Origin: Spirochaetota bacterium
Lineage (GTDB): Bacteria > Spirochaetota > UBA12135 > COTS27 > CBDBHE01
DNA: 64,000 bases
Direction: 5' to 3'
Assembly: GCA_965205605.1 (NCBI GenBank)
Contig: CBDBHE010000007.1
Coordinates: 1-64,000 of the forward strand
In this document: piece after piece, positions 39,959 to 56,055 of the stretch
How the letters are laid out: every line of letters starts with the position of its first letter
Numbering within the stretch: position 1 is the first letter of the stretch
Made by a program: the position numbers and the translations under genes
The notes under the pieces: model-generated
Database searches by the model: none
What the model was told of the DNA's origin: nothing
What the model saw: the letters and a program-made list of their open reading frames with translations, nothing else

Positions 39959-41356
39959 TTAAAGAGACTTCAAAAAATCAATCATATTTTTTCTTTCTTT
40001 TTTGGAAAATTTTAAAAATGCTTTTTTTGATTTTTTTCCCTCTCCCCCATGCCACAAAATAGCTTCTTCTAAAGAAAAAGCTCTGCCATCATGCAAGTAA
40101 CGAGTATGTTTGTTGACTGTTTCAATAAGGCCAATCCCCCAAAGAGGTGGTGTCCTCCATTCATTACCTGTTGCTTCAAAGTCTTCCCTACCATCTGAAA
40201 GTAAATCACCCATGTCATGAAGTAAAAGATCTGTATAAGGATGAATCGTTTGCTCACTAAGAGCTTTAATAGAATGAATGCTTGTTTTTAAAGTTTCTAC
40301 ATGGCAAGCCGTACACTTTGCTTTTTTAAAAAGCTTTCTTCCTTTTCTTACAGAACGATTTTTAACATTACGCCTAGCTGGGACAGCGAGCGTTTGAACA
40401 TAAAAAGTAGTACTTTCTAATTGCTTTTCACTCAAATCAATTTCTTTTTTTCTTCCTTTTTTTGGAAACTTATGGTTTTCATTTGAAAACATAGAAGAGG
40501 TAATTCCAATATCATTGATAAAAGCAAATGCTACTTGTTCTTTAACAGAAGCCTTATTTGCTTTCCAACCAAACCGACCGATTATTTTTTTATTTTTAAT
40601 ATGATCCCAAACATAGTTTGGCTTTCCTGAAACACCATCACCATCAAAATCATTTTCATCGCTTAATTTAATAAGCACGTCTTCACTTACTGCTTCTAAA
40701 AGCCCCACCCCAATCATTTGAGGAGCCACTCTAGGAGAAGTTAAAAGTTTTTTAGATGGCTTACCATAGCGATAAGTATCTATCGTATAAATAGGGTTTT
40801 TTAAAATATAACCATCTCCATCCGAATAATTGCCATAAATATACTCATAATTAATAGAAAAAGAACCTTCTTCTAAAAAACCCAAAATAGCTTGATTTTG
40901 TAATTGATTTCCATAAACAGGGTCTGCCTTGGGCCCCCCATGCTTGTTTTCCCCTGCAATACTAATACGCATAATTAAAGATAAAGGAATTTCATTTTTT
41001 CCTATTGGAGGGCGCCCTCTCCCATCCATAAAGTGACAAGTAGAACAACTTTTTGCATTAAAAAGAGGCCCCAAACCATCTCGAGATTTTGTTGAAGCCC
41101 CCAAACGAACCCAGTTTTCCTTAAAGAAAGAATCTCCTAAAAAAAAAGAAATAATTTCTTTAGGGGAATGAATATTCCTAGCTCTAAAAGTAAAACTTCT
41201 AGGAGAAGCATCAAAAACAGTTGTCTCTCCACCTAATTTAATAGGCCCTTTATTTGCACAAGAAATAAAAGAAAAGCAAAAAACTATAAGTAAAAAAGAT
41301 GATTCAAAAAAACTATAGGTTAACTTCAATCCCAAACTCTTTAGCAGAAGAAGCAA
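39959..41356 (-). CDS. Di-haem oxidoreductase (DUF1111/IrpB-like) lipoprotein
   Basis: GGETT, DGLGPLFN, two CXXCH motifs (CSTCH, CTACH), GRFGWKA, PYTDLLLHDMG, WRTPPLWG, YLHDGRA; start uncertain. Confidence 0.9.
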   Translation of the reverse strand: MLLLLKSLGLKLTYSFFESSFLLIVFCFSFISCANKGPIKLGGETTVFDASPRSFTFRARNIHSPKEIISFFLGDSFFKENWVRLGASTKSRDGLGPLFNAKSCSTCHFMDGRGRPPIGKNEIPLSLIMRISIAGENKHGGPKADPVYGNQLQNQAILGFLEEGSFSINYEYIYGNYSDGDGYILKNPIYTIDTYRYGKPSKKLLTSPRVAPQMIGVGLLEAVSEDVLIKLSDENDFDGDGVSGKPNYVWDHIKNKKIIGRFGWKANKASVKEQVAFAFINDIGITSSMFSNENHKFPKKGRKKEIDLSEKQLESTTFYVQTLAVPARRNVKNRSVRKGRKLFKKAKCTACHVETLKTSIHSIKALSEQTIHPYTDLLLHDMGDLLSDGREDFEATGNEWRTPPLWGIGLIETVNKHTRYLHDGRAFSLEEAILWHGGEGKKSKKAFLKFSKKERKNMIDFLKSL

Positions 41357-42512
41357 TTAAAAACCCAAGCGAAAGTATTTTTTCCGAAGCAGTTGCAATT
41401 CTTTTTCTACCCTCTTCATTAGAAATTTTGATTTCTTGATCAAAAGGGTCTTCAATTGCTTTGCAAGCTTTTTCAGCTACTTGTAAAGCCATTTCAATTT
41501 GCTTTGATTTTTTTTTGTTTTTTCTTCTAAGTAAACTTAAATAATTTGCTTTAAGTTTTTCTGATCCGTATAAGCCTTTTAAAACTTGCTTCGCTCCATT
41601 AAAATTATTAATAATATCCAATTTCGTTTGATCAGAAAAACAAGATTGCTCATTTTCCTTATCATTTGATTCAAAAGCAACCATCATTCTCTCTCCAGCA
41701 AGCTCTTCATAAAGTAAAAAAGAAACCCCTTGTAATATTTTCTTAAGGGCCTCTTGATGAGAAAAAGCAAGGAATTGACTTCTATAATTATTACCATTAT
41801 CAACCTTCCAAGCTTCTACAATCTCTTTAAGATGATTTACTAAAATTTCAGCCGTGAGCATTAAATATTGTTTTCTTCTTTCATAATTTTTTTTACTTTT
41901 TGTATAATCGGTATAGGCTCTTTTTCCCGCTTCTTTATTATCACTTAAATCTTGCCCCCAAAGTAAAAACTCAATCGCATGATAGCCCAAACTAATACTC
42001 TTTTCTCCCGGATTTCCATTAAGCTTTATGAGTTTTTCTTTGCTAAGAGCAATACTAATGTCATTAATAATGCCACTGCTTTCATTACCTAAAACATAAT
42101 CAATATGTGCTTCATCTAAAGGCCAAGGGTTAATAAAAGATTCAATATTTTTTTCATTATCAATAGGACCCCCATAAAAACGAAATACTTCCGTTTTTCC
42201 ATAAGCAATTCTCGCATTGATCCAAGCTAGCTTTACTTTTTTAAACTTTTGATCACTAGGATCATTAATAAAAACTTCTATTTCATTTTTTAATTTAAGT
42301 GCCGACTGATAACTCCCATCATAAGCTTTAAAAGCTAACTCAACATATGCCTCAATAAATTTTTTAGTTTGATTAACATTAGTTTCTCTTAAAGAACAAC
42401 CTGCTAAAGCCAAAGCTAACAAACAAAAAAGACTCCAAAATAAAAAAAATTGCTTATTAATAACAAGATTTTTTTTATTTTTAAATGAATTTGTATTGTT
42501 ATTCATTTTCAT
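41313..42512 (-). CDS. Imelysin-family iron-regulated lipoprotein (IrpA/LruB-like)
   Basis: Lipobox LAGC, TEVFRFYGGPID, NPWPLDE..IDY, GYHAIEFLLWGQD, ELAGERM, E.SCFSD.T. Confidence 0.92.
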   Translation of the reverse strand: MKMNNNTNSFKNKKNLVINKQFFLFWSLFCLLALALAGCSLRETNVNQTKKFIEAYVELAFKAYDGSYQSALKLKNEIEVFINDPSDQKFKKVKLAWINARIAYGKTEVFRFYGGPIDNEKNIESFINPWPLDEAHIDYVLGNESSGIINDISIALSKEKLIKLNGNPGEKSISLGYHAIEFLLWGQDLSDNKEAGKRAYTDYTKSKKNYERRKQYLMLTAEILVNHLKEIVEAWKVDNGNNYRSQFLAFSHQEALKKILQGVSFLLYEELAGERMMVAFESNDKENEQSCFSDQTKLDIINNFNGAKQVLKGLYGSEKLKANYLSLLRRKNKKKSKQIEMALQVAEKACKAIEDPFDQEIKISNEEGRKRIATASEKILSLGFLIASSAKEFGIEVNL

Positions 42513-42530
42513 TTCTTTCTATCCTTAAAA

Positions 42531-42594
42531 TAAGTTTCTTTTTTGAAAAAAAGTTAACTTAATGAAACATTATATACTTTTTGAAAAAAAAAAT
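42531..42594 (-). promoter_or_regulatory. Promoter/operator cassette, copy 1 (upstream of imelysin)
   Basis: Near-identical to 43624-43686; minus-strand TATAAT -10 overlapped by the imperfect palindrome AAAGTTAACTTAATGAAACATT (42550-42571). Confidence 0.75.
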
Positions 42595-42642
42595 CGACTA
42601 AATTTTTTTTTATTCTATTCTTAATATTTTAATTAAGCTTAA

Positions 42643-43605
42643 TCAAGATATTAATTTGTTTTTAGAAGTATTTAAAAAAATTTTAGCCCGATACCATATA
42701 AACAACCCAAGTGAAAGACTAAAAATCCATAAAAAAAATTCAATCCAATTAGGGTTGGAATTATACCCAAAAAATATTTTTAAATACATTCCTATTAAAC
42801 CTTTATCATGAAAATAGTGATAATATTTACCATCTTTATATTGATAAAAAAATACCCAATCTTTTTCACTTAAAGTTTTTTTAGGCTTTAAAATATCCCA
42901 AGGTCGTTTAATCTGATCAGCTGCTTTAATAATCACTTGTTGATTTTCATCAACTTTATCTTTAATACCAAAAAATTTTAATTGATCGCTTTTCACAAAA
43001 AACTCTTCTATCTCATGAGTCCCATAAGTAATCATTCCAGAAGCAAAAATAATTAAAAGTAAAGTCGTTACCGTAAAAAGAGGTTTTAAAGAAAGCTTTT
43101 TCCCCTTTACAAAAATTAAATAACCAACCAAAATCGCCAGAAAAAACCCTAAAAAAAACCCTAAATAAGAAAATTTTTCAGCAATGTTAAACGAAGAAAT
43201 TAAAAAAATTGCTGTTTCAAAACCTTCTCTTAAAACAGCAAAAAAAGCCATTAAAAACACAATCGAATAACGCCTTAATGTATGCGCTTTATGCGTTTTT
43301 TCTTTTATTTCTTCCTGATATTTCGTAATACTTCCAAGCCAAACGACCAAATAAAAAATAAGCCCTCCTGCAAGATACATCATAAGACCTTCAAAGAGCT
43401 TTTCTACAAAATGATGATCCATCATACGGTTAATCACAATAAGAAAATAAGCACAAAGAATAGACCCTAAAAGACCTAAAGCAGCCCCAAGAACAGTATA
43501 AAAAACACCTTTTTTATCATTAAATTTATTAAATAAAATGAGAATCAATCCAATAATAATAGAAAACTCTAAGGTTTCTCTAAAAACAATTAAAAATTCG
43601 TTCAT
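42643..43605 (-). CDS. FTR1/EfeU-family iron permease
   Basis: Two REXXE motifs (FRETLE, LREGFE), multiple TMs, C-terminal FFGYN.NP. Confidence 0.9.
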   Translation of the reverse strand: MNEFLIVFRETLEFSIIIGLILILFNKFNDKKGVFYTVLGAALGLLGSILCAYFLIVINRMMDHHFVEKLFEGLMMYLAGGLIFYLVVWLGSITKYQEEIKEKTHKAHTLRRYSIVFLMAFFAVLREGFETAIFLISSFNIAEKFSYLGFFLGFFLAILVGYLIFVKGKKLSLKPLFTVTTLLLIIFASGMITYGTHEIEEFFVKSDQLKFFGIKDKVDENQQVIIKAADQIKRPWDILKPKKTLSEKDWVFFYQYKDGKYYHYFHDKGLIGMYLKIFFGYNSNPNWIEFFLWIFSLSLGLFIWYRAKIFLNTSKNKLIS

Positions 43606-43699: not shown

Positions 43700-44449
43700 T
43701 TATTTTTTATTTTTAGGTTTGTAATATTTCCATTTTCTTCCAAGGATATCAGCTAGCTTTTTTTCTAAAGCTTTGACTTGCAACAAAACTTTCTGCATTT
43801 CCTTATCTAAGTGAGACAGTTGATCAGCAAGATAATACGGATTTTCTTTTTCTAAAAATCGATTAAAAGATTGAACATTCTCCCCAATCTTAGCTAAAAG
43901 ATCCTCCATTCCCCAATAAGGACCCTTAATACGAATATAATTATTTTTAGAAAAAATTCTAAAATCATAAAATAAAGTTTGCTCATAATAAAACCGAAAT
44001 CCCGATGGTAAAGATTCTTTAAATCCTACTATGTCAGATTTGACTTTTTTAGGATAAATAACGAAACTTAGTTTTTCATCCCCTTCATAATAAAAAGTAA
44101 TTTTATCAAAAGTCATCATTTTGTTTTGATAAAACATATCAATGGTTTCTTTAATTAAGTCTTGAGTTGGTTTTAAAAGATTGTTTTTATAATTTACAAA
44201 AACCGTTACTTTATTTTTGTAATTCAATTTAAAAACTTTATAATACTTACTAACTTTAAAATCAACCTCTTTTAATTCTGCTACAAACCATTTATCGTTT
44301 TCAGACTTTACGGCAGAAGCTTTATTTTTATTTTTTAAGATTTTTTTTTTTGTGAGTGTCTTTTTATTATTCTTCAAAGGTTTATTCTGAGAAAAAACAC
44401 CTGAAAACAGTAAAAATAAAAAAGTGGTGGACATTATTAACTTAATCAT
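43700..44449 (-). CDS. Hypothetical secreted protein with C-terminal coiled coil
   Basis: Signal peptide (LLFSGVFSQ); LPSGFRFYY....YDFRI block; last gene of the cyclase operon; AAGGA RBS. Confidence 0.7.
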   Translation of the reverse strand: MIKLIMSTTFLFLLFSGVFSQNKPLKNNKKTLTKKKILKNKNKASAVKSENDKWFVAELKEVDFKVSKYYKVFKLNYKNKVTVFVNYKNNLLKPTQDLIKETIDMFYQNKMMTFDKITFYYEGDEKLSFVIYPKKVKSDIVGFKESLPSGFRFYYEQTLFYDFRIFSKNNYIRIKGPYWGMEDLLAKIGENVQSFNRFLEKENPYYLADQLSHLDKEMQKVLLQVKALEKKLADILGRKWKYYKPKNKK

Positions 44450-44475
44450 TTTTTTTTAATTCCTTTATATCTTGT

Positions 44476-45552
44476 TTATAAAAAAAGTACAATACTATCT
44501 AAAGACTCTATTTTTTCACTACTTTCATCAGGAGAAATCCATTTGATAACTTCTCCTTCAAAAGAATTGTCTTTTTTTCTAACTAAAATTTCTGCTTTAA
44601 GATTATCATTTTTTCCAATAACATGAGCCTTTGTGTTATTTTTCACTTTGTCATAAAGAGGGTGAATATAAAGCTGAAGAATCTTCCCTTTAATATTTAA
44701 AACAATGCCAACTTGTCCCGTTTTATGCATATAATAATTAATACTTTTACGATAATTATCGATTTCATTTTCATATTTATTTTTTAAATTACGAACAAAA
44801 ATATCAAAGGTTTTTTTTCTTTCTAAAAGGATTTTATCAAAGTTTTCTTCTGCTATTTCTAAATCAGACAAAACGAGATTTACGGCTGCTTTAATTTTAA
44901 GATCCATCAACTTTTTATTATTATCAATAGCAGTATCTCCATCTCCAATAATATTTTTATTTTTTTTCTTTTCTAATAAAATTTTTTGTTGAATTACGGC
45001 AATATCCACACTATTTTTTCTAAATTTTTTTGCAAAAAAAGTCGTAAGTCTAGTAATGTGATAATTAGATTTTATGTCTAAATCGTTGAGTTTTTTTTCA
45101 AATAAAGCCGGATCTATTTCTTCTTTTTCTAAAAGCTCCCTTTTGAAAGCATGAAGGCTTTTATGTTTCTTAAAAGCTCTCTTTTTTCTTCTTAATATTT
45201 CATCTTTTTGAGAAAGGAACCCATCAAGTTCATTTTTTAAATCTCTGATTTTAAAATTAACATCTTGAATATCAATAGTCGCAAAATCATTAATACCAAG
45301 ACCAGCATCTTGTTCCTGACCTTTTTCCTTAATAAAACTAGCCCCAAAAAAGGAAAAAAGAAAAAAACAACTCACAAAACTCAACATGATGATAGGAATA
45401 AAAAAATTTTTCTTTTTCTTTAATTTTAAAATTTCTTCATTAAGAAAATAATCTGTTTTCTTTTCAACTCTTTGTCTAACTGCTTTTGCATCAACTGATA
45501 AAAAAGCTTCTTTAATTTCAGTAATAATTTTTTCTTTATTTGTCTTACTCAT
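44476..45552 (-). CDS. Hypothetical single-TM coiled-coil protein with small C-terminal beta-barrel
   Basis: Likely start ATG 45552 overlaps the cyclase stop (ATGA); one TM, long helical region, C-terminal G.V..I.G....L...K.EI.V....F.G.V......I...D.I pattern. Confidence 0.7.
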   Translation of the reverse strand: MSKTNKEKIITEIKEAFLSVDAKAVRQRVEKKTDYFLNEEILKLKKKKNFFIPIIMLSFVSCFFLFSFFGASFIKEKGQEQDAGLGINDFATIDIQDVNFKIRDLKNELDGFLSQKDEILRRKKRAFKKHKSLHAFKRELLEKEEIDPALFEKKLNDLDIKSNYHITRLTTFFAKKFRKNSVDIAVIQQKILLEKKKNKNIIGDGDTAIDNNKKLMDLKIKAAVNLVLSDLEIAEENFDKILLERKKTFDIFVRNLKNKYENEIDNYRKSINYYMHKTGQVGIVLNIKGKILQLYIHPLYDKVKNNTKAHVIGKNDNLKAEILVRKKDNSFEGEVIKWISPDESSEKIESLDSIVLFL

Positions 45553-47282
45553 TTTTTGGTCATCTCCCAAATTCCTTGCCAATTAGGAGGGACTTTCATC
45601 TTTGTTCTCTTTAAAAATTCATCCTTTATAGGAAGATCTATTTTTTCTAAAAGCTCATTGGCTTGCTTCCAATCGCCTTGATAATATTTTTTCAAAGCAA
45701 TTTTAAAAGCATCCATATTTTTAACCTGCTTTGGTGAAACCATATTTTTATAAACAGGCCAGTAAACTTTACTAAACTCTCTCTTCCCTTTTACTCGCAC
45801 CATATCAATTTCCAAGAAAATGATATCATGATTTAAAACATTTTTTTCAATATCCTCCTTAATAAAAGAAGAACAAATTACAGGGACTTTATACACTCGC
45901 GTCAGACTCTCTAAACGAGAAGCCGAATTAACCCTATCCCCGATAACCGTATTTGTCATTTGCCTATTTGAACCAATATTCCCATAAAAAACTTCTCCCA
46001 TATCTAAACCAACACCCACATCAATTAAAATAGCCTTATAAATATTTTCTTCTTCTTCAGTGAAATCTCTTCCTTTTGTTTTTAAAAGCTCTTTTTTTCT
46101 TTCTTCCATTTTAGATCTAAAACCTAAAGTAGAGTTAATGATTTTATAAGCAGATAAAAGAGCTTGATAAGATTTATTTTTCTTTTTACTACTAAACGTG
46201 CCATAAATAGCCAACAAAGCATCTCCGATAATAGCTCCCATAATGCCTTCTTCTTCAATAATATTTGAAATCGCTTTATCATAATGAATGTTAAGTAATT
46301 CAATAATATCACTACCTAAGGTTTCTGTAATAAAAGTAAAACTTTTAATATCTGTAAAAAGAATCGCTAGTTCTTTTTTGCTTCCTTCAAGCCGAATGTC
46401 TTTTTCTTTATAAATTTTTTCAACAAGGTCATCACTAACGAATTTTCTAAAAATAGTAATTAAATTATTAATCGTACTAGAAAGAGCATTAAAAGACATC
46501 CCTAAATAAGTAATTTGATCCACAGGAGCATTTTTTAAATCAACATATTCAATTTTTTGACTCCGGTTCATGCCCATTAAAGCATTTGTAATATAACCGA
46601 TAAAGCGAAGAATACTCCTCATAACAATAAGCCCTAAAATAGAACAAATAAAAGTAAGAATAATGATAATAAAGACTATATTCTTAAAAGCTTTTTTACT
46701 TTCTGCTTGGAATTCATTTGTTTCTTCGGCTTTTAAAATAAAAAGCTTCCAATCAGGGTGATATTTATAAACACCATAGTATTCTCTATTTAGAAAATTA
46801 AAAGAAAGGATCCCTTCGCCTTTATCTTGTTTATCATTTTTATCGATACCAATAGTTGTAAAATGAAGTTTTTTGTAATCTTTAAATTTTTCTTCTGAGC
46901 CAATTTTAGAAGAATAAAAAGCAATTTTTCCATTTTTTTCAATGCCTAAAATAATGGAATTTTTATTTTCTAAAAGACCATCTCCTATTTGAGTAATGGT
47001 CTTATAAGACTCTTGATTATTATTATTAGGTTGATATTTTTGAATTTTATATTGATTGCTTGTGAAGGTATAAATTTCTTTTAAATCTTTAATTAGAATT
47101 TTTTTTAAAAGCCTTGTCATAATCGATCGATTATAAGCCAAATTAAAATAATTAGTTGTGAAATTAGAAACAAAAATGAAAATAATAAAAACAAATAAAA
47201 TTTTAATCGTAACAGGAGTAATTCGAGCTTGCCCGATTTTTTCTCCTAAAATACTTTCAACTAATTTTTTAAAAAATGACAT
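45549..47282 (-). CDS. Membrane class III nucleotide (adenylate/guanylate-type) cyclase
   Basis: Two TMs around an extracytoplasmic Cache-like region, HAMP-like linker, LFTDIKSFT, IIGDA, G.VFYGNIGS, TVIGDRVNSASRLE, RVKGK, C-terminal PPNWQG tail. Confidence 0.9.
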   Translation of the reverse strand: MSFFKKLVESILGEKIGQARITPVTIKILFVFIIFIFVSNFTTNYFNLAYNRSIMTRLLKKILIKDLKEIYTFTSNQYKIQKYQPNNNNQESYKTITQIGDGLLENKNSIILGIEKNGKIAFYSSKIGSEEKFKDYKKLHFTTIGIDKNDKQDKGEGILSFNFLNREYYGVYKYHPDWKLFILKAEETNEFQAESKKAFKNIVFIIIILTFICSILGLIVMRSILRFIGYITNALMGMNRSQKIEYVDLKNAPVDQITYLGMSFNALSSTINNLITIFRKFVSDDLVEKIYKEKDIRLEGSKKELAILFTDIKSFTFITETLGSDIIELLNIHYDKAISNIIEEEGIMGAIIGDALLAIYGTFSSKKKNKSYQALLSAYKIINSTLGFRSKMEERKKELLKTKGRDFTEEEENIYKAILIDVGVGLDMGEVFYGNIGSNRQMTNTVIGDRVNSASRLESLTRVYKVPVICSSFIKEDIEKNVLNHDIIFLEIDMVRVKGKREFSKVYWPVYKNMVSPKQVKNMDAFKIALKKYYQGDWKQANELLEKIDLPIKDEFLKRTKMKVPPNWQGIWEMTKK

Positions 47283-47326
47283 GACTAAATAATGCTAGTA
47301 TCTTAAATTAATTAGAAACAACTCCT

Positions 47327-50300
47327 TTATTTGTCTTGTACATCGGTATTTTTTTTATGTTCATTAACTAAAAAAAACTCGACTCTTCGATTTTTCAAAT
47401 AATTAAGTTCTGTTAATTTTTTTCTTTCAGAAGAAGAAAACCGAGATCTTCTGATAACTTCTTGCTTCACAAGCAATTCTTTTTTACCTTTTCCTAAAAA
47501 AGAAAGCGTACTTGGCTCAACCCCACTTTTAATAAAATAATTATAAACTGCTTTCGATCGTTTTTCTGAAAGTTTCTGATTATATTCATCACTCCCTCTA
47601 GAATCTGTATGCCCCACAATTAATATATTATATCCTTTAAAACTAACTAAAACATCAAGTATTCTAGTTAAAATTTTCTGATAGTCTCCGACCATTTTAT
47701 CCGAATCAAAAACAAAATTAACCGTATTAATAATAATGCGAAACTTTCCATCTTGAGTGGTTTCGACTAAAAAACCAACTTTGATTTTTTTAGAAACTAA
47801 TTTCACATTCCCTGCCGCATCTGTTGTCTTAAGAACAATAGCATATTCTTGACCTGTTTTAAGATTTTTACCCTTTTTTTTATCATCCCAAGCAACATAA
47901 AGCAAATTGGTTAAAACACTTCCTTCCCACTCCCAAACTTGTAATGGATCTTCATCGAAACTCTTTAAAAATTTGGCTTGATTTGTCTCTCCTTTACGGA
48001 AATTAAATTTAGGTGCATTTTGATAAATGAGCAATTCTGTTTTACCAACACTCTGATTATCTTCACTTTCAACCCCAATCGTCAGTTGATTTAAATTTTC
48101 AACTTCTACAGAGGGCTTAAATTTACCTGATGCTTTAAGAAAAATAACAGGTGGCTTACTATCCACAATCAATTTAATTTTTTTAGAAACAATATTAATT
48201 CGATGCTTATATTTAGCCACTGCCCATATTTTATAAACATTATCTTCTCTCCAAAACGCTTCTTCAAGATTTTTATTTAGAATAATTGAAGATGGCTTTT
48301 TGTATGAAATGATATTAGTTATTATTTTTCTATTTCGCCTATTTCTAAAAGTAAAATAATAGTCAATCCCTTCAAAATATTTGAAGTTATCAAGAGTCGA
48401 CAATAATTTGATAGGGTTTTTCTCTGCCTTTAAATTAAAGTACCCTTCTCCCTCAGAAAAAAACAATTTAAGATTAGCTACGTTTTTTCGAATCAAAATT
48501 ACTTTCAAGGCTTCACTAGACCAAACATTATTTCCTCCATCTTTTGTAATTAAACGAATAAAATAAGTCCCTTCAGGAACATCTTTCCTATTGTCATCTT
48601 TTCCTTTCCAAACACATTTTCTTAAATCAAAATTCATTCCTTCAAGTGTAACCGTTTTACCTTTTTGATCCTTCACTTCAATCCAAACAGCGTTTCCTTT
48701 TCTCCATTTTTTAAAATCTTCTTTAGCGATATCTAGTTCAAACTGTTCATTAAAACCATCTCCATTAGGAGAAAAATAAAGATTTTTAAAAGAAAAATTA
48801 AGTTTCAAAGGCTCGGTATCAACCACAAAAAAACGACTAGTCGTTAAATTTTCATTGCCATCAAAAAACAAACTATATTCATACTTATAATCAGTCCCAT
48901 CTGAATATGGAAAAGGAGTTTTGTTATTATCAGGATAATTGACACCTTCCACATCATTTTTAAGCTCATATTTTTTAATGACTCTATCTCCTTTAAAAAC
49001 CCTTAAAAAACCTCTTAAAAACCGTTTTCTTGTTTCTAAAGGAAGATTAAAACTAACTGTAAAATAGTCCTTTTCTCCGTCTCCATTAGGCGAGATTCTC
49101 ACCAATTCAGAAGAGACGGAAACATTCACCTTTTTAGCAAAAACCCTAAATGCTTTAGTCCTAACTAAAGCTTCATTACCCGCCTTGTCAGTTACCTTTA
49201 ACTCATAAATATAATTACCACCTACAACACTTTCCCCTTTATTATCTAAACCCGCCCAATTAAAACTCCACTCTTCTTGAAAAGATTCTTTATTCTCAGG
49301 AGTAATCTCATAATTTTTACTTAAAAAAACTTGTCTTTTATTCGTCTTAGATGAAAAAATTTTTAGATTAATGCTCTTCACATTCCTATCTTGTGTTTCT
49401 TGGTAAAAGTTAATCGACCGATTGCCAGTTAAGCTCGTTTTATCTGTAATAAAAGAAGTTACGTCATGATTTAATGTTACCTTCGGCTTTGTGTTATCTA
49501 TCACAAAACTACCTGTAAACTTTAATACCTGTGCTCCATCAAACCAAAACTCACTATCATACCCATATTCCCCGTCTTGAAGCTTTTGGTTTTTAAAAGA
49601 GTACACTCTCTCTTTTTTTAAAAGATCCTTCACTTTTTCTTCATACACAACCTTCTTTACACCAGTCCCGTTTTTTTTATAAAAAACAATTTTTCCATCT
49701 TTGAAAATCTGACGACTTGCCTTGGGAAAACTAAAATTGAGTTTCAAAGCATCTAAAACATTATCTCCATTAAGAGAAATATACTTCGTTTTCGTTTCAA
49801 CGTTCCCCTTAGCTTTTTCTTTACATACCCTAAATGCTTTAGTCCTAACTAAAGCTTCATTACCCGCCTTGTCAGTTACCTTTAACTCATAAATATAATT
49901 ACCACCTACAACACTTTCCCCTTTATTATCTAAACCCGCCCAATTAAAACTCCACTCTTCTTGAAAAGATTCTTTATTCTCAGGAGTAATCTCATAATTT
50001 TTACTTAAAAAAACTTGTCTTTTATTCGTCTTAGATGAAAAAATTTTTAGATTAATGCTCTTCACATTCCTATCTTGTGTTTCTTGGTAAAAGTTAATCG
50101 ACCGATTGCCAGTTAAGCTCGTTTTATCTGTAATAAAAGAAGTTGCGTCATGATTTAATGTTACCTTCGGCTTTGTGTTATCTATCACAAAACTACCTGT
50201 AAACTTTAATACCTGTGCTCCATCAAACCAAAACTCACTATCATACCCATATTCCCCGTCTTGAAGCTTTTGGTTTTTAAAAGAGTACACTCTCTCTTTT

Positions 50301-53300
50301 TTTAAAAGATCCTTCACTTTTTCTTCATACACAACCTTCTTTACACCAGTCCCGTTTTTTTTATAAAAAACAATTTTTCCATCTTTGAAAATCTGACGAC
50401 TTGCCTTGGGAAAACTAAAATTGAGTTTCAAAGCATCTAAAACATTATCTCCATTAAGAGAAATATACTTCGTTTTCGTTTCAACGTTCCCCTTAGCTTT
50501 TTCTTTACATACCCTAAATGCTTTAGTCCTAACTAAAGCTTCATTACCCGCCTTGTCAGTTACCTTTAACTCATAAATATAATTACCACCTACAACACTT
50601 TCCCCTTTATTATCTAAACCCGCCCAATTAAAACTCCACTCTTCTTGAAAAGATTCTTTATTCTCAGGAGTAATCTCATAATTTTTACTTAAAAAAACTT
50701 GTCTTTTATTCGTCTTAGATGAAAAAATTTTTAGATTAATGCTCTTCACATTCCTATCTTGTGTTTCTTGGTAAAAGTTAATCGACCGATTGCCAGTTAA
50801 GCTCGTTTTATCTGTAATAAAAGAAGTTGCGTCATGATTTAATGTTACCTTCGGCTTTGTGTTATCTATCACAAAACTACCTGTAAACTTTAATACCTGT
50901 GCTCCATCAAACCAAAACTCACTATCATACCCATATTCCCCGTCTTGAAGCTTTTGGTTTTTAAAAGAGTACACTCTCTCTTTTTTTAAAAGATCCTTCA
51001 CTTTTTCTTCATACACAACCTTCTTTACACCAGTCCCGTTTTTTTTATAAAAAACAATTTTTCCATCTTTGAAAATCTGACGACTTGCCTTGGGAAAACT
51101 AAAATTGAGTTTCAAAGCATCTAAAACATTATCTCCATTAAGAGAAATATACTTCGTTTTCGTTTCAACGTTCCCCTTAGCTTTTTCTTTACATACCCTA
51201 AATGCTTTAGTCCTAACTAAAGCTTCATTACCCGCCTTGTCAGTTACCTTTAACTCATAAATATAATTACCACCTACAACACTTTCCCCTTTATTATCTA
51301 AACCCGCCCAATTAAAACTCCACTCTTCTTGAAAAGATTCTTTATTCTCAGGAGTAATCTCATAATTTTTACTTAAAAAAACTTGTCTTTTATTCGTCTT
51401 AGATGAAAAAATTTTTAGATTAATGCTCTTCACATTCCTATCTTGTGTTTCTTGGTAAAAGTTAATCGACCGATTGCCAGTTAAGCTCGTTTTATCTGTA
51501 ATAAAAGAAGTTGCGTCATGATTTAATGTTACCTTCGGCTTTGTGTTATCTATCACAAAACTACCTGTAAACTTTAATACCTGTGCTCCATCAAACCAAA
51601 ACTCACTATCATACCCATATTCCCCGTCTTGAAGCTTTTGGTTTTTAAAAGAGTACACTCTCTCTTTTTTTAAAAGATCCTTCACTTTTTCTTCATACAC
51701 AACCTTCTTTACACCAGTCCCGTTTTTTTTATAAAAAACAATTTTTCCATCTTTGAAAATCTGACGACTTGCCTTGGGAAAACTAAAATTGAGTTTCAAA
51801 GCATCTAAAACATTATCTCCATTAAGAGAAATATACTTCGTTTTCGTTTCAACGTTCCCCTTAGCTTTTTCTTTACATACCCTAAATGCTTTAGTCCTAA
51901 CTAAAGCTTCATTACCCGCCTTGTCAGTTACCTTTAACTCATAAATATAATTACCTGTCTTAACTTTAGTGCCTGTCTGATCATATCCATTCCAATGCCA
52001 TTTTTTTTCAAAAACACTTTTTGCTTTAAAAATCACATCTCCCTCAAACCATTCTTCTTCTGAAAAAACAACTTTTTTATTTTTTGGTGCATCTTTCAAA
52101 ACTCTAAACTTTAAAGAATGAAGATTTTTATCAATCAATTTATAGGTAAAAACAATCCCTTCTTTGTCTTGTAAAGTAGGATCTTCTGAAATAACAAACA
52201 CATTTCGATTTTTTTCAACAAAGATTTTTGGCAATGTGTTATCAATAATAAAAGTGCTTTGACTTTTTACTCTAAAACCTGTTTTGTAAAACGTTTTTAA
52301 ATTAGCAACATAAACCCCTTCTCTTAATTGATTGGCTTGTTTAAAAGCAAAAGTTTTTTTAAAAGTAGCCCTTTTTTGACTAAAAATAACAGTGTTTATT
52401 TTTTTATTAACAATAGAGAGCGTCTCATAATCTAAATTTCTTTGACTCTCTCTTTGAATATTAAAAACTAATGGAAGCTCTTTTTCCCCTCCTTTCTTTT
52501 TACTAAAATAACGAGGATTTTCAAAAGAAACTTTGGGGGGATTAATAAAAATTTTAAAAAATTGTTTTTTAGAAATAGATTTGTTATTTGCTAAATCCTT
52601 ACCTTTTAAAAAAACGGAATAATTTCCTTCTTCTAGCAATTGTCCTGACTTATCTTTCCCATCCCAATAAAAGCTAAATTGATGATTTTTTTTTAAAAAG
52701 TCATTTCCTTTAAATAATATTTCATTAACGATTTTTCCGTTTTTGTCTTCATTTAAAAATATAAGTTTTATTGTATCAAAAACACCGTAATAGCTCATCT
52801 TAAGATGCAGTTCAAGCTCTTCTTTTTCCCCATCTCCATTAGGAGAAAAAAAATCACTGATAATAGTTACTTTATTAACCGAAGGATCTTTATCTAAAAA
52901 CACTTTTCGAAAAGGTGTTGTGATCTTTTGTCCGTCTTCATCAATGGCTTCAACAAAGTATAAATAAAGTCCTTCAGAACAATCTATTTCTTTTTTATCA
53001 GACGTTTGCTCTTGTTTACCATCCCAAAAGACACTTTTTTGATCCAAGTAATCTTTTGAATCATAAGTTTTAATAATTTTGAGTTTATTAACATTTAGTT
53101 GGAGTACCTTAATAGTCCAATTAGTGATTTTAGGGTTTTTTAAAACTTCGTGTGAAAGTAAAATCGTGTCTCTATCGCCATCTCCATTAGGAGAAAAATA
53201 AAGAGCCGTTTCTCGAGGCATTGAAAAAGAACAAACAATTAAAGTAATTAAAAAAATTAAAAAAAATGTTTTTTTAATTTTAAAAATAAAGGTGAACATC

Positions 53301-53302
53301 AA
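47327..53302 (-). CDS. Giant FlgD-Ig/CHU_C-repeat protein with C-terminal OmpA peptidoglycan-binding domain
   Basis: Signal peptide, repeated FSPNGDG, WDG and D.AGN Ig modules; OmpA motif GHTDSRGSDEYNQKLSEKR...NRRVEF. Confidence 0.88.
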   Translation of the reverse strand: MMFTFIFKIKKTFFLIFLITLIVCSFSMPRETALYFSPNGDGDRDTILLSHEVLKNPKITNWTIKVLQLNVNKLKIIKTYDSKDYLDQKSVFWDGKQEQTSDKKEIDCSEGLYLYFVEAIDEDGQKITTPFRKVFLDKDPSVNKVTIISDFFSPNGDGEKEELELHLKMSYYGVFDTIKLIFLNEDKNGKIVNEILFKGNDFLKKNHQFSFYWDGKDKSGQLLEEGNYSVFLKGKDLANNKSISKKQFFKIFINPPKVSFENPRYFSKKKGGEKELPLVFNIQRESQRNLDYETLSIVNKKINTVIFSQKRATFKKTFAFKQANQLREGVYVANLKTFYKTGFRVKSQSTFIIDNTLPKIFVEKNRNVFVISEDPTLQDKEGIVFTYKLIDKNLHSLKFRVLKDAPKNKKVVFSEEEWFEGDVIFKAKSVFEKKWHWNGYDQTGTKVKTGNYIYELKVTDKAGNEALVRTKAFRVCKEKAKGNVETKTKYISLNGDNVLDALKLNFSFPKASRQIFKDGKIVFYKKNGTGVKKVVYEEKVKDLLKKERVYSFKNQKLQDGEYGYDSEFWFDGAQVLKFTGSFVIDNTKPKVTLNHDATSFITDKTSLTGNRSINFYQETQDRNVKSINLKIFSSKTNKRQVFLSKNYEITPENKESFQEEWSFNWAGLDNKGESVVGGNYIYELKVTDKAGNEALVRTKAFRVCKEKAKGNVETKTKYISLNGDNVLDALKLNFSFPKASRQIFKDGKIVFYKKNGTGVKKVVYEEKVKDLLKKERVYSFKNQKLQDGEYGYDSEFWFDGAQVLKFTGSFVIDNTKPKVTLNHDATSFITDKTSLTGNRSINFYQETQDRNVKSINLKIFSSKTNKRQVFLSKNYEITPENKESFQEEWSFNWAGLDNKGESVVGGNYIYELKVTDKAGNEALVRTKAFRVCKEKAKGNVETKTKYISLNGDNVLDALKLNFSFPKASRQIFKDGKIVFYKKNGTGVKKVVYEEKVKDLLKKERVYSFKNQKLQDGEYGYDSEFWFDGAQVLKFTGSFVIDNTKPKVTLNHDATSFITDKTSLTGNRSINFYQETQDRNVKSINLKIFSSKTNKRQVFLSKNYEITPENKESFQEEWSFNWAGLDNKGESVVGGNYIYELKVTDKAGNEALVRTKAFRVCKEKAKGNVETKTKYISLNGDNVLDALKLNFSFPKASRQIFKDGKIVFYKKNGTGVKKVVYEEKVKDLLKKERVYSFKNQKLQDGEYGYDSEFWFDGAQVLKFTGSFVIDNTKPKVTLNHDVTSFITDKTSLTGNRSINFYQETQDRNVKSINLKIFSSKTNKRQVFLSKNYEITPENKESFQEEWSFNWAGLDNKGESVVGGNYIYELKVTDKAGNEALVRTKAFRVFAKKVNVSVSSELVRISPNGDGEKDYFTVSFNLPLETRKRFLRGFLRVFKGDRVIKKYELKNDVEGVNYPDNNKTPFPYSDGTDYKYEYSLFFDGNENLTTSRFFVVDTEPLKLNFSFKNLYFSPNGDGFNEQFELDIAKEDFKKWRKGNAVWIEVKDQKGKTVTLEGMNFDLRKCVWKGKDDNRKDVPEGTYFIRLITKDGGNNVWSSEALKVILIRKNVANLKLFFSEGEGYFNLKAEKNPIKLLSTLDNFKYFEGIDYYFTFRNRRNRKIITNIISYKKPSSIILNKNLEEAFWREDNVYKIWAVAKYKHRINIVSKKIKLIVDSKPPVIFLKASGKFKPSVEVENLNQLTIGVESEDNQSVGKTELLIYQNAPKFNFRKGETNQAKFLKSFDEDPLQVWEWEGSVLTNLLYVAWDDKKKGKNLKTGQEYAIVLKTTDAAGNVKLVSKKIKVGFLVETTQDGKFRIIINTVNFVFDSDKMVGDYQKILTRILDVLVSFKGYNILIVGHTDSRGSDEYNQKLSEKRSKAVYNYFIKSGVEPSTLSFLGKGKKELLVKQEVIRRSRFSSSERKKLTELNYLKNRRVEFFLVNEHKKNTDVQDK
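49143..51955. repeat. Intragenic tandem repeat, 684-bp unit (228 aa), 4.1 copies
   Basis: ACCCTAAATGCTTTAGTCC recurs at 49143, 49827, 50511, 51195 and 51879; the only difference noticed is A49461 vs G (Val vs Ala). Confidence 0.97.
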
Positions 53303-53472
53303 ATTAAACTAAATTAATAAATAATTTAAGTATCAAAAATATATCATGAGACTCAACTAATAAAAACTGAAAACAATCACTATTTTCTAAAATAAAGATA
53401 TTTTTTATCATCCAGAAGAGATATGCTAAAATAACATTTAAGTAAAAAATTAAATAACTTACAAAATAAAAA

Positions 53473-56055
53473 ATGTTAAATATACTAAAATTTTTTTTTG
53501 GAACTAAACACGAAAGAGATATAAAAAAAATAAAACCTCTTGTAGAAAAAATTAATGCCTTTGAAAAAAAATTAGAACCATTAAGTGACAAAGTTTTAAA
53601 AGAAAAAACCAACTTTTTTAAAAAACGTCTTCAAAAAGGAGAGAAACTAGAGTCCGTTTTGCCAGAAGCCTTTGCTGTCGTAAGAGAAGCTTCTAAAAGA
53701 ACTCTTAAATTACGTCATTTTGATGTCCAAATGATTGGAGGATTTGTTCTTTTTCAAGGAAAAATTGCTGAAATGAAAACAGGGGAAGGAAAAACTCTTG
53801 TTGCTACTTTAACAGCGTATTTAAGAGCCCTTGAAGAAAAAGGGGTCCACGTCGTAACAGTCAATGATCATTTAGCAAAACGAGATGCTAATTGGATGAG
53901 ACCTATTTATGAGTTTTTAGGACTTTCGGTAGGATATATTGTTCATGATCTAGACCCTCAAACAAGAAAAGAAATGTATACCTGTGACATCACATATGGG
54001 ACTAATAATGAGTTTGGTTTTGATTATTTACGAGATAATATGGTCGATGAAATTGGACATAAATCCCAAAGAGAACATTACTTTTGCATTATTGATGAAG
54101 TGGATTCTATTTTAATTGATGAAGCAAGAACTCCTTTGATTATTTCAGGACCTTCTGATTCGTCCGTGGATAAGTATTATCAAATTGACAAGATCATCCC
54201 TCGCCTTAAAGAAGCACAAAAAGACATAAAAGGAAAAGAAGTTGCCAATACAGGTGATTTTATTATTGATATCAAAGACCGAAACCTTATTATTACAGAA
54301 GATGGTGTTAAAACAGTTGAGAAACTACTTAGCATTAAAAATCTTTTTGATGTTAACAATATGGAAATACTCCACCATGTCAATCAAGGCTTAAAATCGC
54401 ATCATCTTTATAAAAAAAACATTGATTATATTGTAGAAAATGGGGAAGTGGTGATTATTGATGAGTTTACAGGCAGAAAAATGGGAGGACGTCGCTTTTC
54501 TGATGGGCTCCATCAAGCCATCGAAGCCAAAGAAAGAGTGCAAATTCTTTCTGAAAATCAAACCCTCGCTTCAATTACCTTTCAAAACTACTTTAGAATG
54601 TATTCGGTTATTTCAGGGATGACAGGGACAGCTGATACAGAAGCTATCGAATTTAAAAAAATATATAATTTAGAAGTTGTTTGCATCCCTACCAATGTTT
54701 CTGTTGCTAGGAAAGATCAAAATGACAAAGTTTATCGAACTGAAAAAGAAAAATTTAATGCCATTTCAAAACTTGTTAGTCAAAAGCATCAAAAAGGAGT
54801 CCCAATATTAATCGGGACTTCTTCAGTAGAAAATTCAGAAGCTTTAAGTCAAATTTTCAAAAAAAATCGCCTCCCTCATGAAGTCCTTAATGCCAAAAAC
54901 CATGAAAGAGAAGCTATCATTACAACTAAAGCAGGAGAAAAACATTCCATTACAATCGCTACAAATATGGCAGGTAGAGGGACTGACATAAAACTAGGCA
55001 AAGGAGTAAAAGAATTGGGCGGCCTTTTAGTCATTGGAAGTGAAAGACACGAATCAAGAAGAATTGACAATCAATTAAGAGGTCGTTCTGGGAGACAAGG
55101 TGATCCTGGAGAATCTATTTTTTACTTATCTCTTGAAGATGACCTCATGAAACGCTTTGGTAGTGAAAAATTGTCTAACATCATGCTTAGACTTGGAATG
55201 GAAGAAGGGCAAGAAATTGAAAACCCAATTATTTCTAGAGCCATTCGGGGGGCTCAAAAAAAAGTAGAGGGCATTAATTTTGAAATAAGAAAGTACCTTT
55301 TAGAATATGATGATGTGATGAATAAACAAAGAGTTTATATTTACAAAGAAAGAAATGAAATCTTAAAAGGAGAGCATTTAATCAAAAAAATAGAAGACTA
55401 TTTTGATGAAAGTTTGACCCATCAATTTTATCTTTTTTCCAACAAAAGTGAAAAAACTTCCGAAAATCTTTTTGAAAAAAGTAAACTTTATTTAGAAGGG
55501 GCTTTATCGATTCAATTTTCTATGGAGTTAAATGCTTTTTTAAAAAATAGTTATTATGAAAATGAAGACATTCTTTTTGAATACATTTTAAAACAATACA
55601 AAGAAAAACAAAAAGAGCATCCAAAGGATTTAATTAATTTTATTGAAAAATATGTTTTACTTCAAATTTTAGACACAAAATGGAAAGACCATTTATTACA
55701 AATGGATCACTTAAAAGAAGGGATCAACTTAAGATCTTACGGAGAAAAAAAACCACTAAATGAATTCAAACAAGAAGGATTTAAAATCTTTAAAGCCATG
55801 TTAAGCGCTATTCATCAAGAGTCAATGGAAAAATTATTTCAAGTTAAAGCCGTCAAAGCACCAACTCAAATGAGCTCAAATTATGATATCCATTCGGAAG
55901 AAAGTAATAAAGAAATCTTTTCTTCAAATGAAACTAGAAAACAAATTGCTAATCAAAAAAAAAATCAAGTCATTAATCCTTCTAAAATAGGCAGAAACGA
56001 ACCTTGCTATTGTCAAAGTGGGAAAAAATACAAATATTGTCATGGAAAAATCTAA
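53473..56055 (+). CDS. secA: Preprotein translocase subunit SecA
   Basis: EMKTGEGKT, YGTNNEFGFDYLRDNM, DEVDSILIDEARTPLIISG, QLRGRSGRQGDPG, SEC-C GRNEPCYCQSGKKYKYCHG. Confidence 0.98.
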   Translation: MLNILKFFFGTKHERDIKKIKPLVEKINAFEKKLEPLSDKVLKEKTNFFKKRLQKGEKLESVLPEAFAVVREASKRTLKLRHFDVQMIGGFVLFQGKIAEMKTGEGKTLVATLTAYLRALEEKGVHVVTVNDHLAKRDANWMRPIYEFLGLSVGYIVHDLDPQTRKEMYTCDITYGTNNEFGFDYLRDNMVDEIGHKSQREHYFCIIDEVDSILIDEARTPLIISGPSDSSVDKYYQIDKIIPRLKEAQKDIKGKEVANTGDFIIDIKDRNLIITEDGVKTVEKLLSIKNLFDVNNMEILHHVNQGLKSHHLYKKNIDYIVENGEVVIIDEFTGRKMGGRRFSDGLHQAIEAKERVQILSENQTLASITFQNYFRMYSVISGMTGTADTEAIEFKKIYNLEVVCIPTNVSVARKDQNDKVYRTEKEKFNAISKLVSQKHQKGVPILIGTSSVENSEALSQIFKKNRLPHEVLNAKNHEREAIITTKAGEKHSITIATNMAGRGTDIKLGKGVKELGGLLVIGSERHESRRIDNQLRGRSGRQGDPGESIFYLSLEDDLMKRFGSEKLSNIMLRLGMEEGQEIENPIISRAIRGAQKKVEGINFEIRKYLLEYDDVMNKQRVYIYKERNEILKGEHLIKKIEDYFDESLTHQFYLFSNKSEKTSENLFEKSKLYLEGALSIQFSMELNAFLKNSYYENEDILFEYILKQYKEKQKEHPKDLINFIEKYVLLQILDTKWKDHLLQMDHLKEGINLRSYGEKKPLNEFKQEGFKIFKAMLSAIHQESMEKLFQVKAVKAPTQMSSNYDIHSEESNKEIFSSNETRKQIANQKKNQVINPSKIGRNEPCYCQSGKKYKYCHGKI

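Follow-up and report, generated by a model that had tools for sequence, protein, structure and literature searches.

Gene content of the locus

The stretch of DNA analyzed here comprises positions 1 to 64,000 of contig CBDBHE010000007.1 from a Spirochaetota bacterium (assembly GCA_965205605.1) and is referred to throughout as the window. Between positions 43,700 and 53,302, it contains four co-oriented open reading frames (ORFs) on the minus strand, which we designate A, B, C, and D for simplicity. The genes encode a giant protein with immunoglobulin (Ig)-like modules and a C-terminal OmpA domain (A), a nucleotide cyclase with two transmembrane (TM) segments (B), a protein with one TM helix, long helices, and a terminal β-barrel (C), and an exported protein that belongs to no known family (D). 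The host genome, 1.69 Mb in 8 contigs with ∼28% G+C around the locus, is the sole member of its family among the genomes compared. Our analysis shows that B, C, and D are a conserved unit of the Spirochaetota, and our leading hypothesis is that their products make up a sensory complex that faces the periplasm, with the cyclase under the control of C and D.

An earlier note on this DNA, made from the sequence alone, had proposed that all four genes encode a single trans-envelope signaling system. Its ORFs, their coordinates, and their spacing were all confirmed from the sequence, as was the boundary formed by the divergent secA gene upstream of A, and its descriptions of the four products hold (Table 1). 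The TTG at 45,582, which the ORF finder took as the start of C, was rejected as an over-extension; because the only close homolog of C, the protein P0002, begins at the identical MSKTNKEK, the start of C was placed at the ATG. A scan for promoters and terminators performed at chance level, with 49 promoter-like sites against 47.5 expected and 3 terminator-like sites against 3.0, and the absence of a terminator-like call in the spacer between A and B is therefore uninformative; nor does the scan support the separate promoter that the note ascribed to the FTR1 gene.

Table 1. Genes, junctions, and repeats in and around the B-C-D locus of the window.
Feature	Position	Strand	Description
Gene A	47327-53302	minus	1991 aa from TTG; next codon ATG; database copy P0172, 1990 aa
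Tandem repeat in A	49143-51955	minus	4.11 copies of 684 bp (228 aa); single mismatch, at 49461
A-B spacer	47283-47326	minus	44 nt; sequence read base by base
Gene B	45549-47282	minus	577 aa; membrane class III nucleotide cyclase
B stop/C start overlap	45549-45552	minus	ATGA; sequence read base by base
Gene C	44476-45552	minus	358 aa from ATG; single-pass membrane protein
C-D spacer	44450-44475	minus	26 nt; AAGGA 13 nt before ATG
Gene D	43700-44449	minus	249 aa; exported protein
secA	53473-56055		Divergent, upstream of A
FTR1 gene	42643-43605	minus	94 nt past D

B, C, and D are inherited together in a fixed order

Conservation of the gene neighborhood, on which the proposal of the earlier note was said to depend, was examined for B, C, and D in 401 Spirochaetota genomes, which are an even sample of the phylum and not the whole of it. 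A profile of D matched 77 of these genomes, belonging to 52 of 152 genera; the host is one of them, and loci were fetched from 53 of the remaining 76. At all 53 loci, B, C, and D follow one another in this order on one strand; the three genes are whole at 50 loci and are cut by a contig end at the other three. The cyclases at the 53 loci are orthologous to B, with hmmsearch scores of 640 to 940 bits. Because the arrangement recurs at every locus taken from another genome, the clustering is far beyond chance, and chance adjacency was ruled out. The flanks of the unit are unrelated (Mfd, an SNF2 helicase, a CoA activase, YceI, AsmA, ClpB, a tRNA synthetase, and others), and the nearest ORF upstream lies on the opposite strand at 32 of 48 loci. 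The junctions within the unit are mostly overlaps, ranging from −4 to −46 nt when measured from the starts of the longest ORFs. Taken together, these data show that B, C, and D, hereafter the triad, are one conserved three-gene unit that is inherited together in a fixed order and is usually translationally coupled.

The same association is seen at close range and the family appears restricted at long range. Among the 12 nearest relatives of the host, a whole-length ortholog of B (E ≤ 1e-150) was found in five, which are the same five that have D. A scan of 185,579 species genomes with a six-row alignment of D returned 12 relatives, all with spirochete or uncultured-bacterium titles. The D-family profile matched 485 cluster representatives among 1.84 billion at E ≤ 0.001, and the family is moderate in size. 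All of the named proteins in the cluster look-up are titled "hypothetical protein," and the D homolog at one locus from a complete genome (L031) is identical to a sequence on record as a Thermospira aquatica hypothetical protein. Searches with C were less productive: as a single query in the relatives, it gave weak coiled-coil matches only, and its alignment, used as a profile against genome and metagenome contigs, found no loci. A literature search found no paper describing the module.

B is a class III cyclase with an unusual active site

The cyclase domain of B was identified by Pfam as PF00211 (residues 302-502, E 1.1e-12, 48.4 bits against a cut-off of 21.9), and no GGDEF domain was reported in the protein. 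The layout of B consists of two hydrophobic segments around a periplasmic loop of ∼155 aa, a linker, the cyclase domain, and a C-terminal tail of 75 aa that is conserved. Across the orthologs, the loop spans 145 to 171 residues with a median of 156. Pfam gave no match to a HAMP or Cache domain in B at E ≤ 0.01, and a language-model search (Atlas) with the periplasmic loop gave leads, and leads only, to sCache_2 and sCache_3 clusters (score 0.90-0.91). Among solved structures, B is closest to photoactivated and bacteriophytochrome-linked adenylate cyclases. These features show B to be a class III nucleotide cyclase that sits in the inner membrane and extends a loop into the periplasm.

The catalytic positions of B were mapped through one HMMER alignment to the photoactivated cyclase bPAC. 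No variation was seen at D311, D354, N452, R456, or T445 across the 52 orthologs compared, which are the B of the window and 51 others. We take D311 and D354 to be the metal-binding Asp pair and N452 and R456 to be the transition-state Asn and Arg of class III cyclases. Position 350, four residues before the second metal-binding Asp, is presumably the adenine-reading Lys site, and T445 is presumably the second base-contact position. Judged by these residues, the catalytic core of B is intact. Canonical adenylate cyclases owe their specificity to a Lys paired with Asp or Thr, and B resembles the class IIIb-type cyclases with Thr at the second specificity position. The canonical Lys, however, is absent: position 350 is Ser in 48 of the 52 orthologs and Ala in four, and it is Ala350 in the window. 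Since the Lys is replaced by Ser or Ala in every ortholog, the product of B may be something other than plain cyclic AMP (cAMP).

The same genome has six matches to cyclic nucleoside monophosphate (cNMP)-binding domains in five ORFs, which means that readers for such a signal exist, and four cyclase loci. One of the five ORFs, a 727-aa ORF with its cNMP-binding domain on the minus strand of the window (13575-13829), lies 30 kb from B. In addition, outside the window on the same contig (C7:739994-740537), two short ORFs with an in-frame TGA together hold a class III cyclase domain, which is probably a broken paralog.

C and D are periplasm-facing proteins of no known family

An AlphaFold2 model of C, built from a 54-sequence alignment, has a mean predicted local distance difference test (pLDDT) score of 79.6, with 91 to 95 in the blocks of the barrel. 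In this model, a conserved cytoplasmic N-terminus is followed by a TM helix (51-80), a helical hairpin (95-199) whose arms are antiparallel (95-143/148-199), a long helix of 72 residues (207-278), and a six-strand β-barrel (282-356). In 50 of the 54 C-family proteins, the residues preceding the TM helix include more Lys and Arg than those following it, which indicates an N-in topology. Residues 280-358 superimpose on the N-terminal barrel of the F1/V1-ATPase α/β subunits, known as the crown, with Z scores of 9.3 to 9.9 and a root mean square deviation (rmsd) of 1.6 to 2.5 Å over 64 to 72 residues, at a sequence identity of 4 to 21%. The best Foldseek matches of the barrel are to the same domain (E 2e-3). 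The terminal barrel described in the earlier note is thus supported by the model and by structural superposition. FlgT, to which the note had likened it, was not among the matches listed in the fold searches, and ATP synthase entries fill those lists; FlgT-C itself resembles the F1 crown barrel. A wide fold search with C was filled by generic helical hairpins (Z ∼9-11) and was not interpreted.

The C family has no Pfam or NCBIfam match, the 15 members scanned having given only six unrelated single-member matches, and the C profile returned coiled-coil noise only from the PDB sequences (best E 0.014). Regardless of family, these results show that C is anchored in the inner membrane and that its coiled coils and crown-type barrel are periplasmic. 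At one locus (L029:12521-13243, in genome G005), the cyclase and the full-length C are separated by a further ORF of 240 aa, which also matches the C profile; the sister genome G007 lacks this insert.

The corresponding model of D, also from a 54-sequence alignment, has a mean pLDDT of 82.2, with 84 to 97 in the core blocks. D consists of a signal-type N-terminus, a Lys-rich disordered segment (∼21-55), an α/β domain (59-200), and a long helix (204-239). Since a signal-type hydrophobic N-terminus is present in 54 of 54 D proteins, D is shown to be an exported α/β protein. The segment at residues 21-55, a Lys/Asn-rich stretch of low complexity directly after the signal peptide, is absent from the other members in the alignment and was modeled as disordered. 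No Pfam or NCBIfam match was found for the D family, the D profile gave only coiled-coil noise against the PDB sequences (best E 0.067), and the Atlas search with D gave no usable match. The best structural candidates, histidine racemase by Foldseek (E 0.019, rmsd 14.7 Å) and AcrIIA11 (Z 5.3) and the ToxR periplasmic domain (Z 4.9) by VIA-align, were rejected as lying within the noise band. Weak HTH_32 matches (3 of 14, E 0.0044) in the C-terminal domain of typical D proteins were not interpreted.

Given the N-in topology of C, the signal-type N-terminus of D, and the loop of B, the rod and barrel of C, D itself, and the B loop all face the periplasm. Complex prediction was carried out for residues 85-358 of C with residues 50-249 of D. 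The interaction prediction score from aligned errors (ipSAE) was 0.35, 0.35, and 0.46 in three runs, whereas the highest-scoring of three controls gave 0.00. No fewer than 58% of contacts are common to the runs, and the pLDDT of the partner is 72 or higher. In the calibration of this score, 116 of 157 solved complexes passed, as did 2 of 215 mismatched pairs. With ipSAE ≤ 0.60, the passes comprise 18 of the 157 solved complexes and both of these mismatched pairs, and a pass in this range is more likely false than true unless the pairing is likely beforehand. The pairing of C and D is likely beforehand because of their synteny, and the models weakly suggest that C binds D.

Type-2 modules and the paired loss of domains

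A longer D-like protein, in which the D domain is followed by a half resembling an outer-membrane (OM) barrel, is present in 10 of the 401 genomes. We refer to these proteins and their loci as type 2 and to the common form as type 1. The matches of the barrel half are weak: OMP_b-brl was matched in two of six proteins, both times below the cut-off (E 4.5e-5 and 6.6e-3), the OM-barrel models MXAN_2562, TP0733, and Bd0486 were matched by one member each (E 0.0036-0.05), and the PDB entry 3dzm was matched with E 0.21. The C-terminal half of the type-2 D-like protein is, on the strength of these matches, probably an OM barrel. Seven type-2 loci were fetched (L134-L140, from G036, G309, G375, G315, G033, G202, and G369). 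Four of them have their own B and C paralogs beside the D-like gene, a further one has only a C-like domain, and in one type-2 locus, a 954-aa protein without a family match carries C as its C-terminal third. Directly after the D-like gene, five of the seven loci encode a large exported repeat or β-propeller protein (Big_13; Flg_new and GLUG; Flg_new, DUF285, and PKD; PD40; DUF5018 and a propeller), and at a sixth, the D-like protein itself bears fused fn3 repeats.

The type-2 modules share a peculiarity with the window. The C of the window lacks a middle region of ∼70-90 aa that is present in 51 other members, and its D lacks the C-terminal helical domain of ∼65 aa that other members have. 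Both parts are present together at 51 type-1 loci, and both are absent from the window lineage and from the type-2 modules. In a quick maximum-likelihood tree of B, the window groups with type-1 relatives of its own order (Shimodaira-Hasegawa-like approximate likelihood ratio test support of 88), and a clade of their own, with support of 100, unites three of the four cyclases from type-2 loci. The paired loss therefore happened at least twice, which suggests that the two parts, one in C and one in D, work together.

A belongs to a separate family of envelope proteins

The Pfam domains of A include FlgD_ig, CHU_C, and Big-type Ig-like modules, followed by the OmpA domain (PF00691, residues 1863-1948, 62.4 bits against a cut-off of 27.2). 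Residues 1459-1945 match the Lsa66 model NF053608 with E 2.9e-46, but the score of 158.1 bits is far from the cut-off of 700 and A is not an equivalog. The score against the YfiB model NF053585, 49.8 bits, also falls below its cut-off of 128. Lsa66 of Leptospira is reported to be OmpA-like and to bind both extracellular matrix and plasminogen (PMC3130794). A is similar to it in having Ig-like modules and then a C-terminal OmpA domain; however, it is three times longer, has a 4.1-copy tandem repeat of 228 aa, and comes from a free-living lineage. In the homolog of A from the sister species (P0173, 1555 aa, 81% identity), three seeds delimit two units of 230 aa, as compared to four units here. 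This difference in unit number indicates that the length of A varies between close relatives, as it does in surface adhesins.

Members of the A family with 1051 to 1135 aa were found in seven of eight genomes of the same order, unlinked to the triad, and members of ∼1335 aa are widespread. No A-like gene occupies the position of A at any of the 53 triad loci; a phmmer search with A found three OmpA-type ORFs in all the flanks, and these lie elsewhere. Two complete genomes of the same order have both an A-family gene and the triad, and the two are far apart in each: 38-41 kb versus 626-631 kb in G005 (∼0.6 Mb) and 473 kb versus 1,674-1,678 kb in G007 (∼1.2 Mb). Five others (G001, G002, G003, G006, and G008) have an A-family gene, and neither a D nor a B ortholog was found in them at a completeness of 75 to 89%. 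The neighborhoods of A in same-order relatives have nothing in common with the window except A, its constant partner there being an upstream gene of 340 to 424 aa that belongs to no known family. A homolog of this usual partner occurs in the host genome itself, outside the window at C8:74907-76790, where it is followed by a 255-aa ORF that is ∼27% identical to the N-terminal 240 residues of A; this site may be the ancestral A locus, now left with only a short paralog.

In the closest relative, the homologs of A (P0173), C (P0002, 66%), and D (P0008, 80%) are each on a contig of 67,663 bp. Because these contigs are equal in length, linkage of A to the triad is probably found in the sister species as well and is probably common to a small lineage. 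Taken together, A is an adhesin-like envelope protein of its own widespread spirochete family, which lies beside the triad only in this lineage and is a bystander or at most a lineage-specific addition. Its membership in the signaling system, as put forward in the earlier note, is not supported by the 53 loci or by the two complete genomes.

Neighboring genes

Downstream of D, the minus strand of the window (39959-43605) encodes an FTR1 permease, an imelysin (Peptidase_M75), and a diheme peroxidase (DHOR) in a row, which looks like an iron-uptake cluster unrelated to the triad. In the divergent spacer between secA and A, an ORF of 102 aa on the minus strand (53304-53612) overlaps the start of secA; its translation is hydrophobic and of low complexity, and it is probably not a gene.

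Discussion

The co-inheritance of B, C, and D, their fixed order, their common compartment, and the intact catalytic core of B lead us to infer a complex in which C and D control B. According to our current hypothesis, which we favor by a modest lean, the triad is a phylum-wide three-gene operon that encodes a periplasm-facing sensory complex, with A as an unrelated neighbor. B, C, and D would form one complex, and C and D would be dedicated accessory or sensor subunits that tune B, acting on its periplasmic loop or by way of the TM helix and conserved cytoplasmic N-terminus of C. These two parts of C would offer a natural path across the membrane to the enzyme. An envelope or periplasmic cue would thereby be turned into a cyclic nucleotide signal, to be read by the cNMP-binding proteins of the genome. 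Several points weigh against this hypothesis. The complex prediction covers the C-D pair only and passes weakly. The roles of the B residues are carried over from other class III cyclases through a single HMMER alignment, the C barrel is a common small fold that shows no function, and the fold of D gives no hint of one. Moreover, the C and D of the window are reduced forms, and the module here may work unlike the typical one. Lastly, the ORFs in the other genomes were called mechanically, and the exact lengths of the overlaps are uncertain.

The signaling idea of the earlier note survives in part. That B, C, and D are a conserved unit with periplasmic domains, and that the type-2 D is fused to a probable OM barrel, is in keeping with a trans-envelope system; the inclusion of A is not. 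We see a small but real chance that the triad is a spirochete-specific trans-envelope sensor, in which C would be a coiled-coil stalk that spans the periplasm and its crown-type barrel would dock on the D domain. In type 1, D would be a free periplasmic protein, and in type 2, it would be part of the OM; in the lineage of the window, it may couple to the cell wall via the neighboring OmpA-anchored Ig-repeat protein A. Deformation of the outer envelope, contact, or damage would then be relayed through the TM helix and cytoplasmic N-terminus of C to the cyclase, whose active site, with Ser or Ala for Lys, may make a cyclic nucleotide other than cAMP. That all four proteins, A included, form one complex anchored in the cell wall and feeding the cyclase is, in our estimation, quite unlikely. 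A and B do share a strand and are separated by a 44-nt spacer in which no terminator-like site was called, the homologs of A, C, and D are probably linked in the closest relative too, large envelope proteins recur beside the type-2 modules, and the C and D of the window lack the same parts as their type-2 counterparts. Set against this are the type-1 loci, none of which has an A-like gene beside the triad, the distance between the two in G005 and G007, the five less complete genomes with an A-family gene and no D or B ortholog found, and the different gene that is the conserved neighbor of A in relatives.

The partners might instead serve the envelope itself. C and D could be structural or assembly proteins of the envelope or periplasm, such as a scaffold or a ring of crown-type barrels, which the cyclase monitors or by which it is localized. 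The crown of the F1/V1 ATPases forms rings, long coiled coils such as those of C are typical of scaffolds, the type-2 D is probably in the OM, and the family is confined to a phylum with a peculiar periplasm, as far as the scan of species genomes extends. The barrel of C differs from the ATPase crown, however, in that there is no ATPase domain and the barrel is periplasmic and at the end of a coiled coil; a common fold does not mean a common function. In addition, the D profile matched 0 of 75 genomes in family f13, 0 of 11 in f16, 1 of 38 in f18, and 5 of 51 in f20, and this absence or rarity indicates that C and D are not a core part of the envelope. The strict one-to-one linkage with one cyclase ortholog also fits a dedicated signaling unit better, and we regard the structural role as improbable, if not by a wide measure. 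A role in transport is, in our view, highly improbable. A TM helix, an α-hairpin, and a β-barrel are the typical layout of HlyD/AcrA-type adaptors, and the C model has all three, with its hairpin antiparallel and its barrel terminal; C could thus be a divergent periplasmic adaptor that acts with D in transport, the link to the cyclase being only regulatory or fortuitous. Yet a sequence scan of 15 C members turned up no adaptor family, HlyD-type or otherwise, and the C model shows no lipoyl domain, although the fold searches were dominated by other matches. The 40 flanking ORFs that were scanned with Pfam, from the 53 loci, include no ABC, RND, or MFS pump and no TolC-like gene, but only two BPD_transp_2 permeases, and linkage to a cyclase at every locus is not fortuitous.

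The dedicated sensory complex that we favor has a known counterpart in logic. In the YfiBNR (TpbB) system of Pseudomonas aeruginosa, the periplasmic protein YfiR is reported to control an inner-membrane cyclase and to be sequestered by the OmpA-like outer-membrane lipoprotein YfiB; the three genes form one operon that reports periplasmic or envelope signals (PMC4655355, PMC4887326). This is the nearest known system, since it likewise combines an inner-membrane cyclase that has a periplasmic sensor part with a periplasmic partner. The statement in the earlier note that no characterized system has this architecture overlooks it, an OmpA-like lipoprotein, a periplasmic regulator, and an inner-membrane cyclase all being present there. 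The differences are nonetheless substantial. YfiN is a GGDEF diguanylate cyclase, whereas B is a class III cyclase of PF00211; neither C nor D falls into a known family, that of YfiR included; C, as a second partner, has an inner-membrane anchor and a coiled coil; and the OmpA protein A, below the YfiB cut-off, is not conserved with the module. B itself is similar to the membrane class III adenylate cyclases in its Asp pair, Asn, Arg, and Thr and in its two TM segments, periplasmic loop, and cytoplasmic catalytic domain, and it differs from them by the Ser or Ala in place of Lys, by the conserved 75-aa tail, and by its two obligatory neighbor genes. Both partner families are new, and B has an unusual active site.

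The analysis corrects the first reading of this locus, in that the giant OmpA protein is a bystander or at most an addition of one lineage. What remains is a cyclase ortholog that always travels with two partners of unannotated families, in about one-fifth of the sampled genomes of the phylum. To our knowledge, little is understood of cyclic nucleotide signaling in spirochetes, and next to nothing has been learned about the cues that turn on their many membrane cyclases. The triad offers a concrete and testable three-protein sensory module, together with a natural variant that is probably tethered to the OM, and the change in the active site of B brings the identity of the messenger into question. 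The record from Thermospira aquatica, a named organism, may offer a route to experiments.

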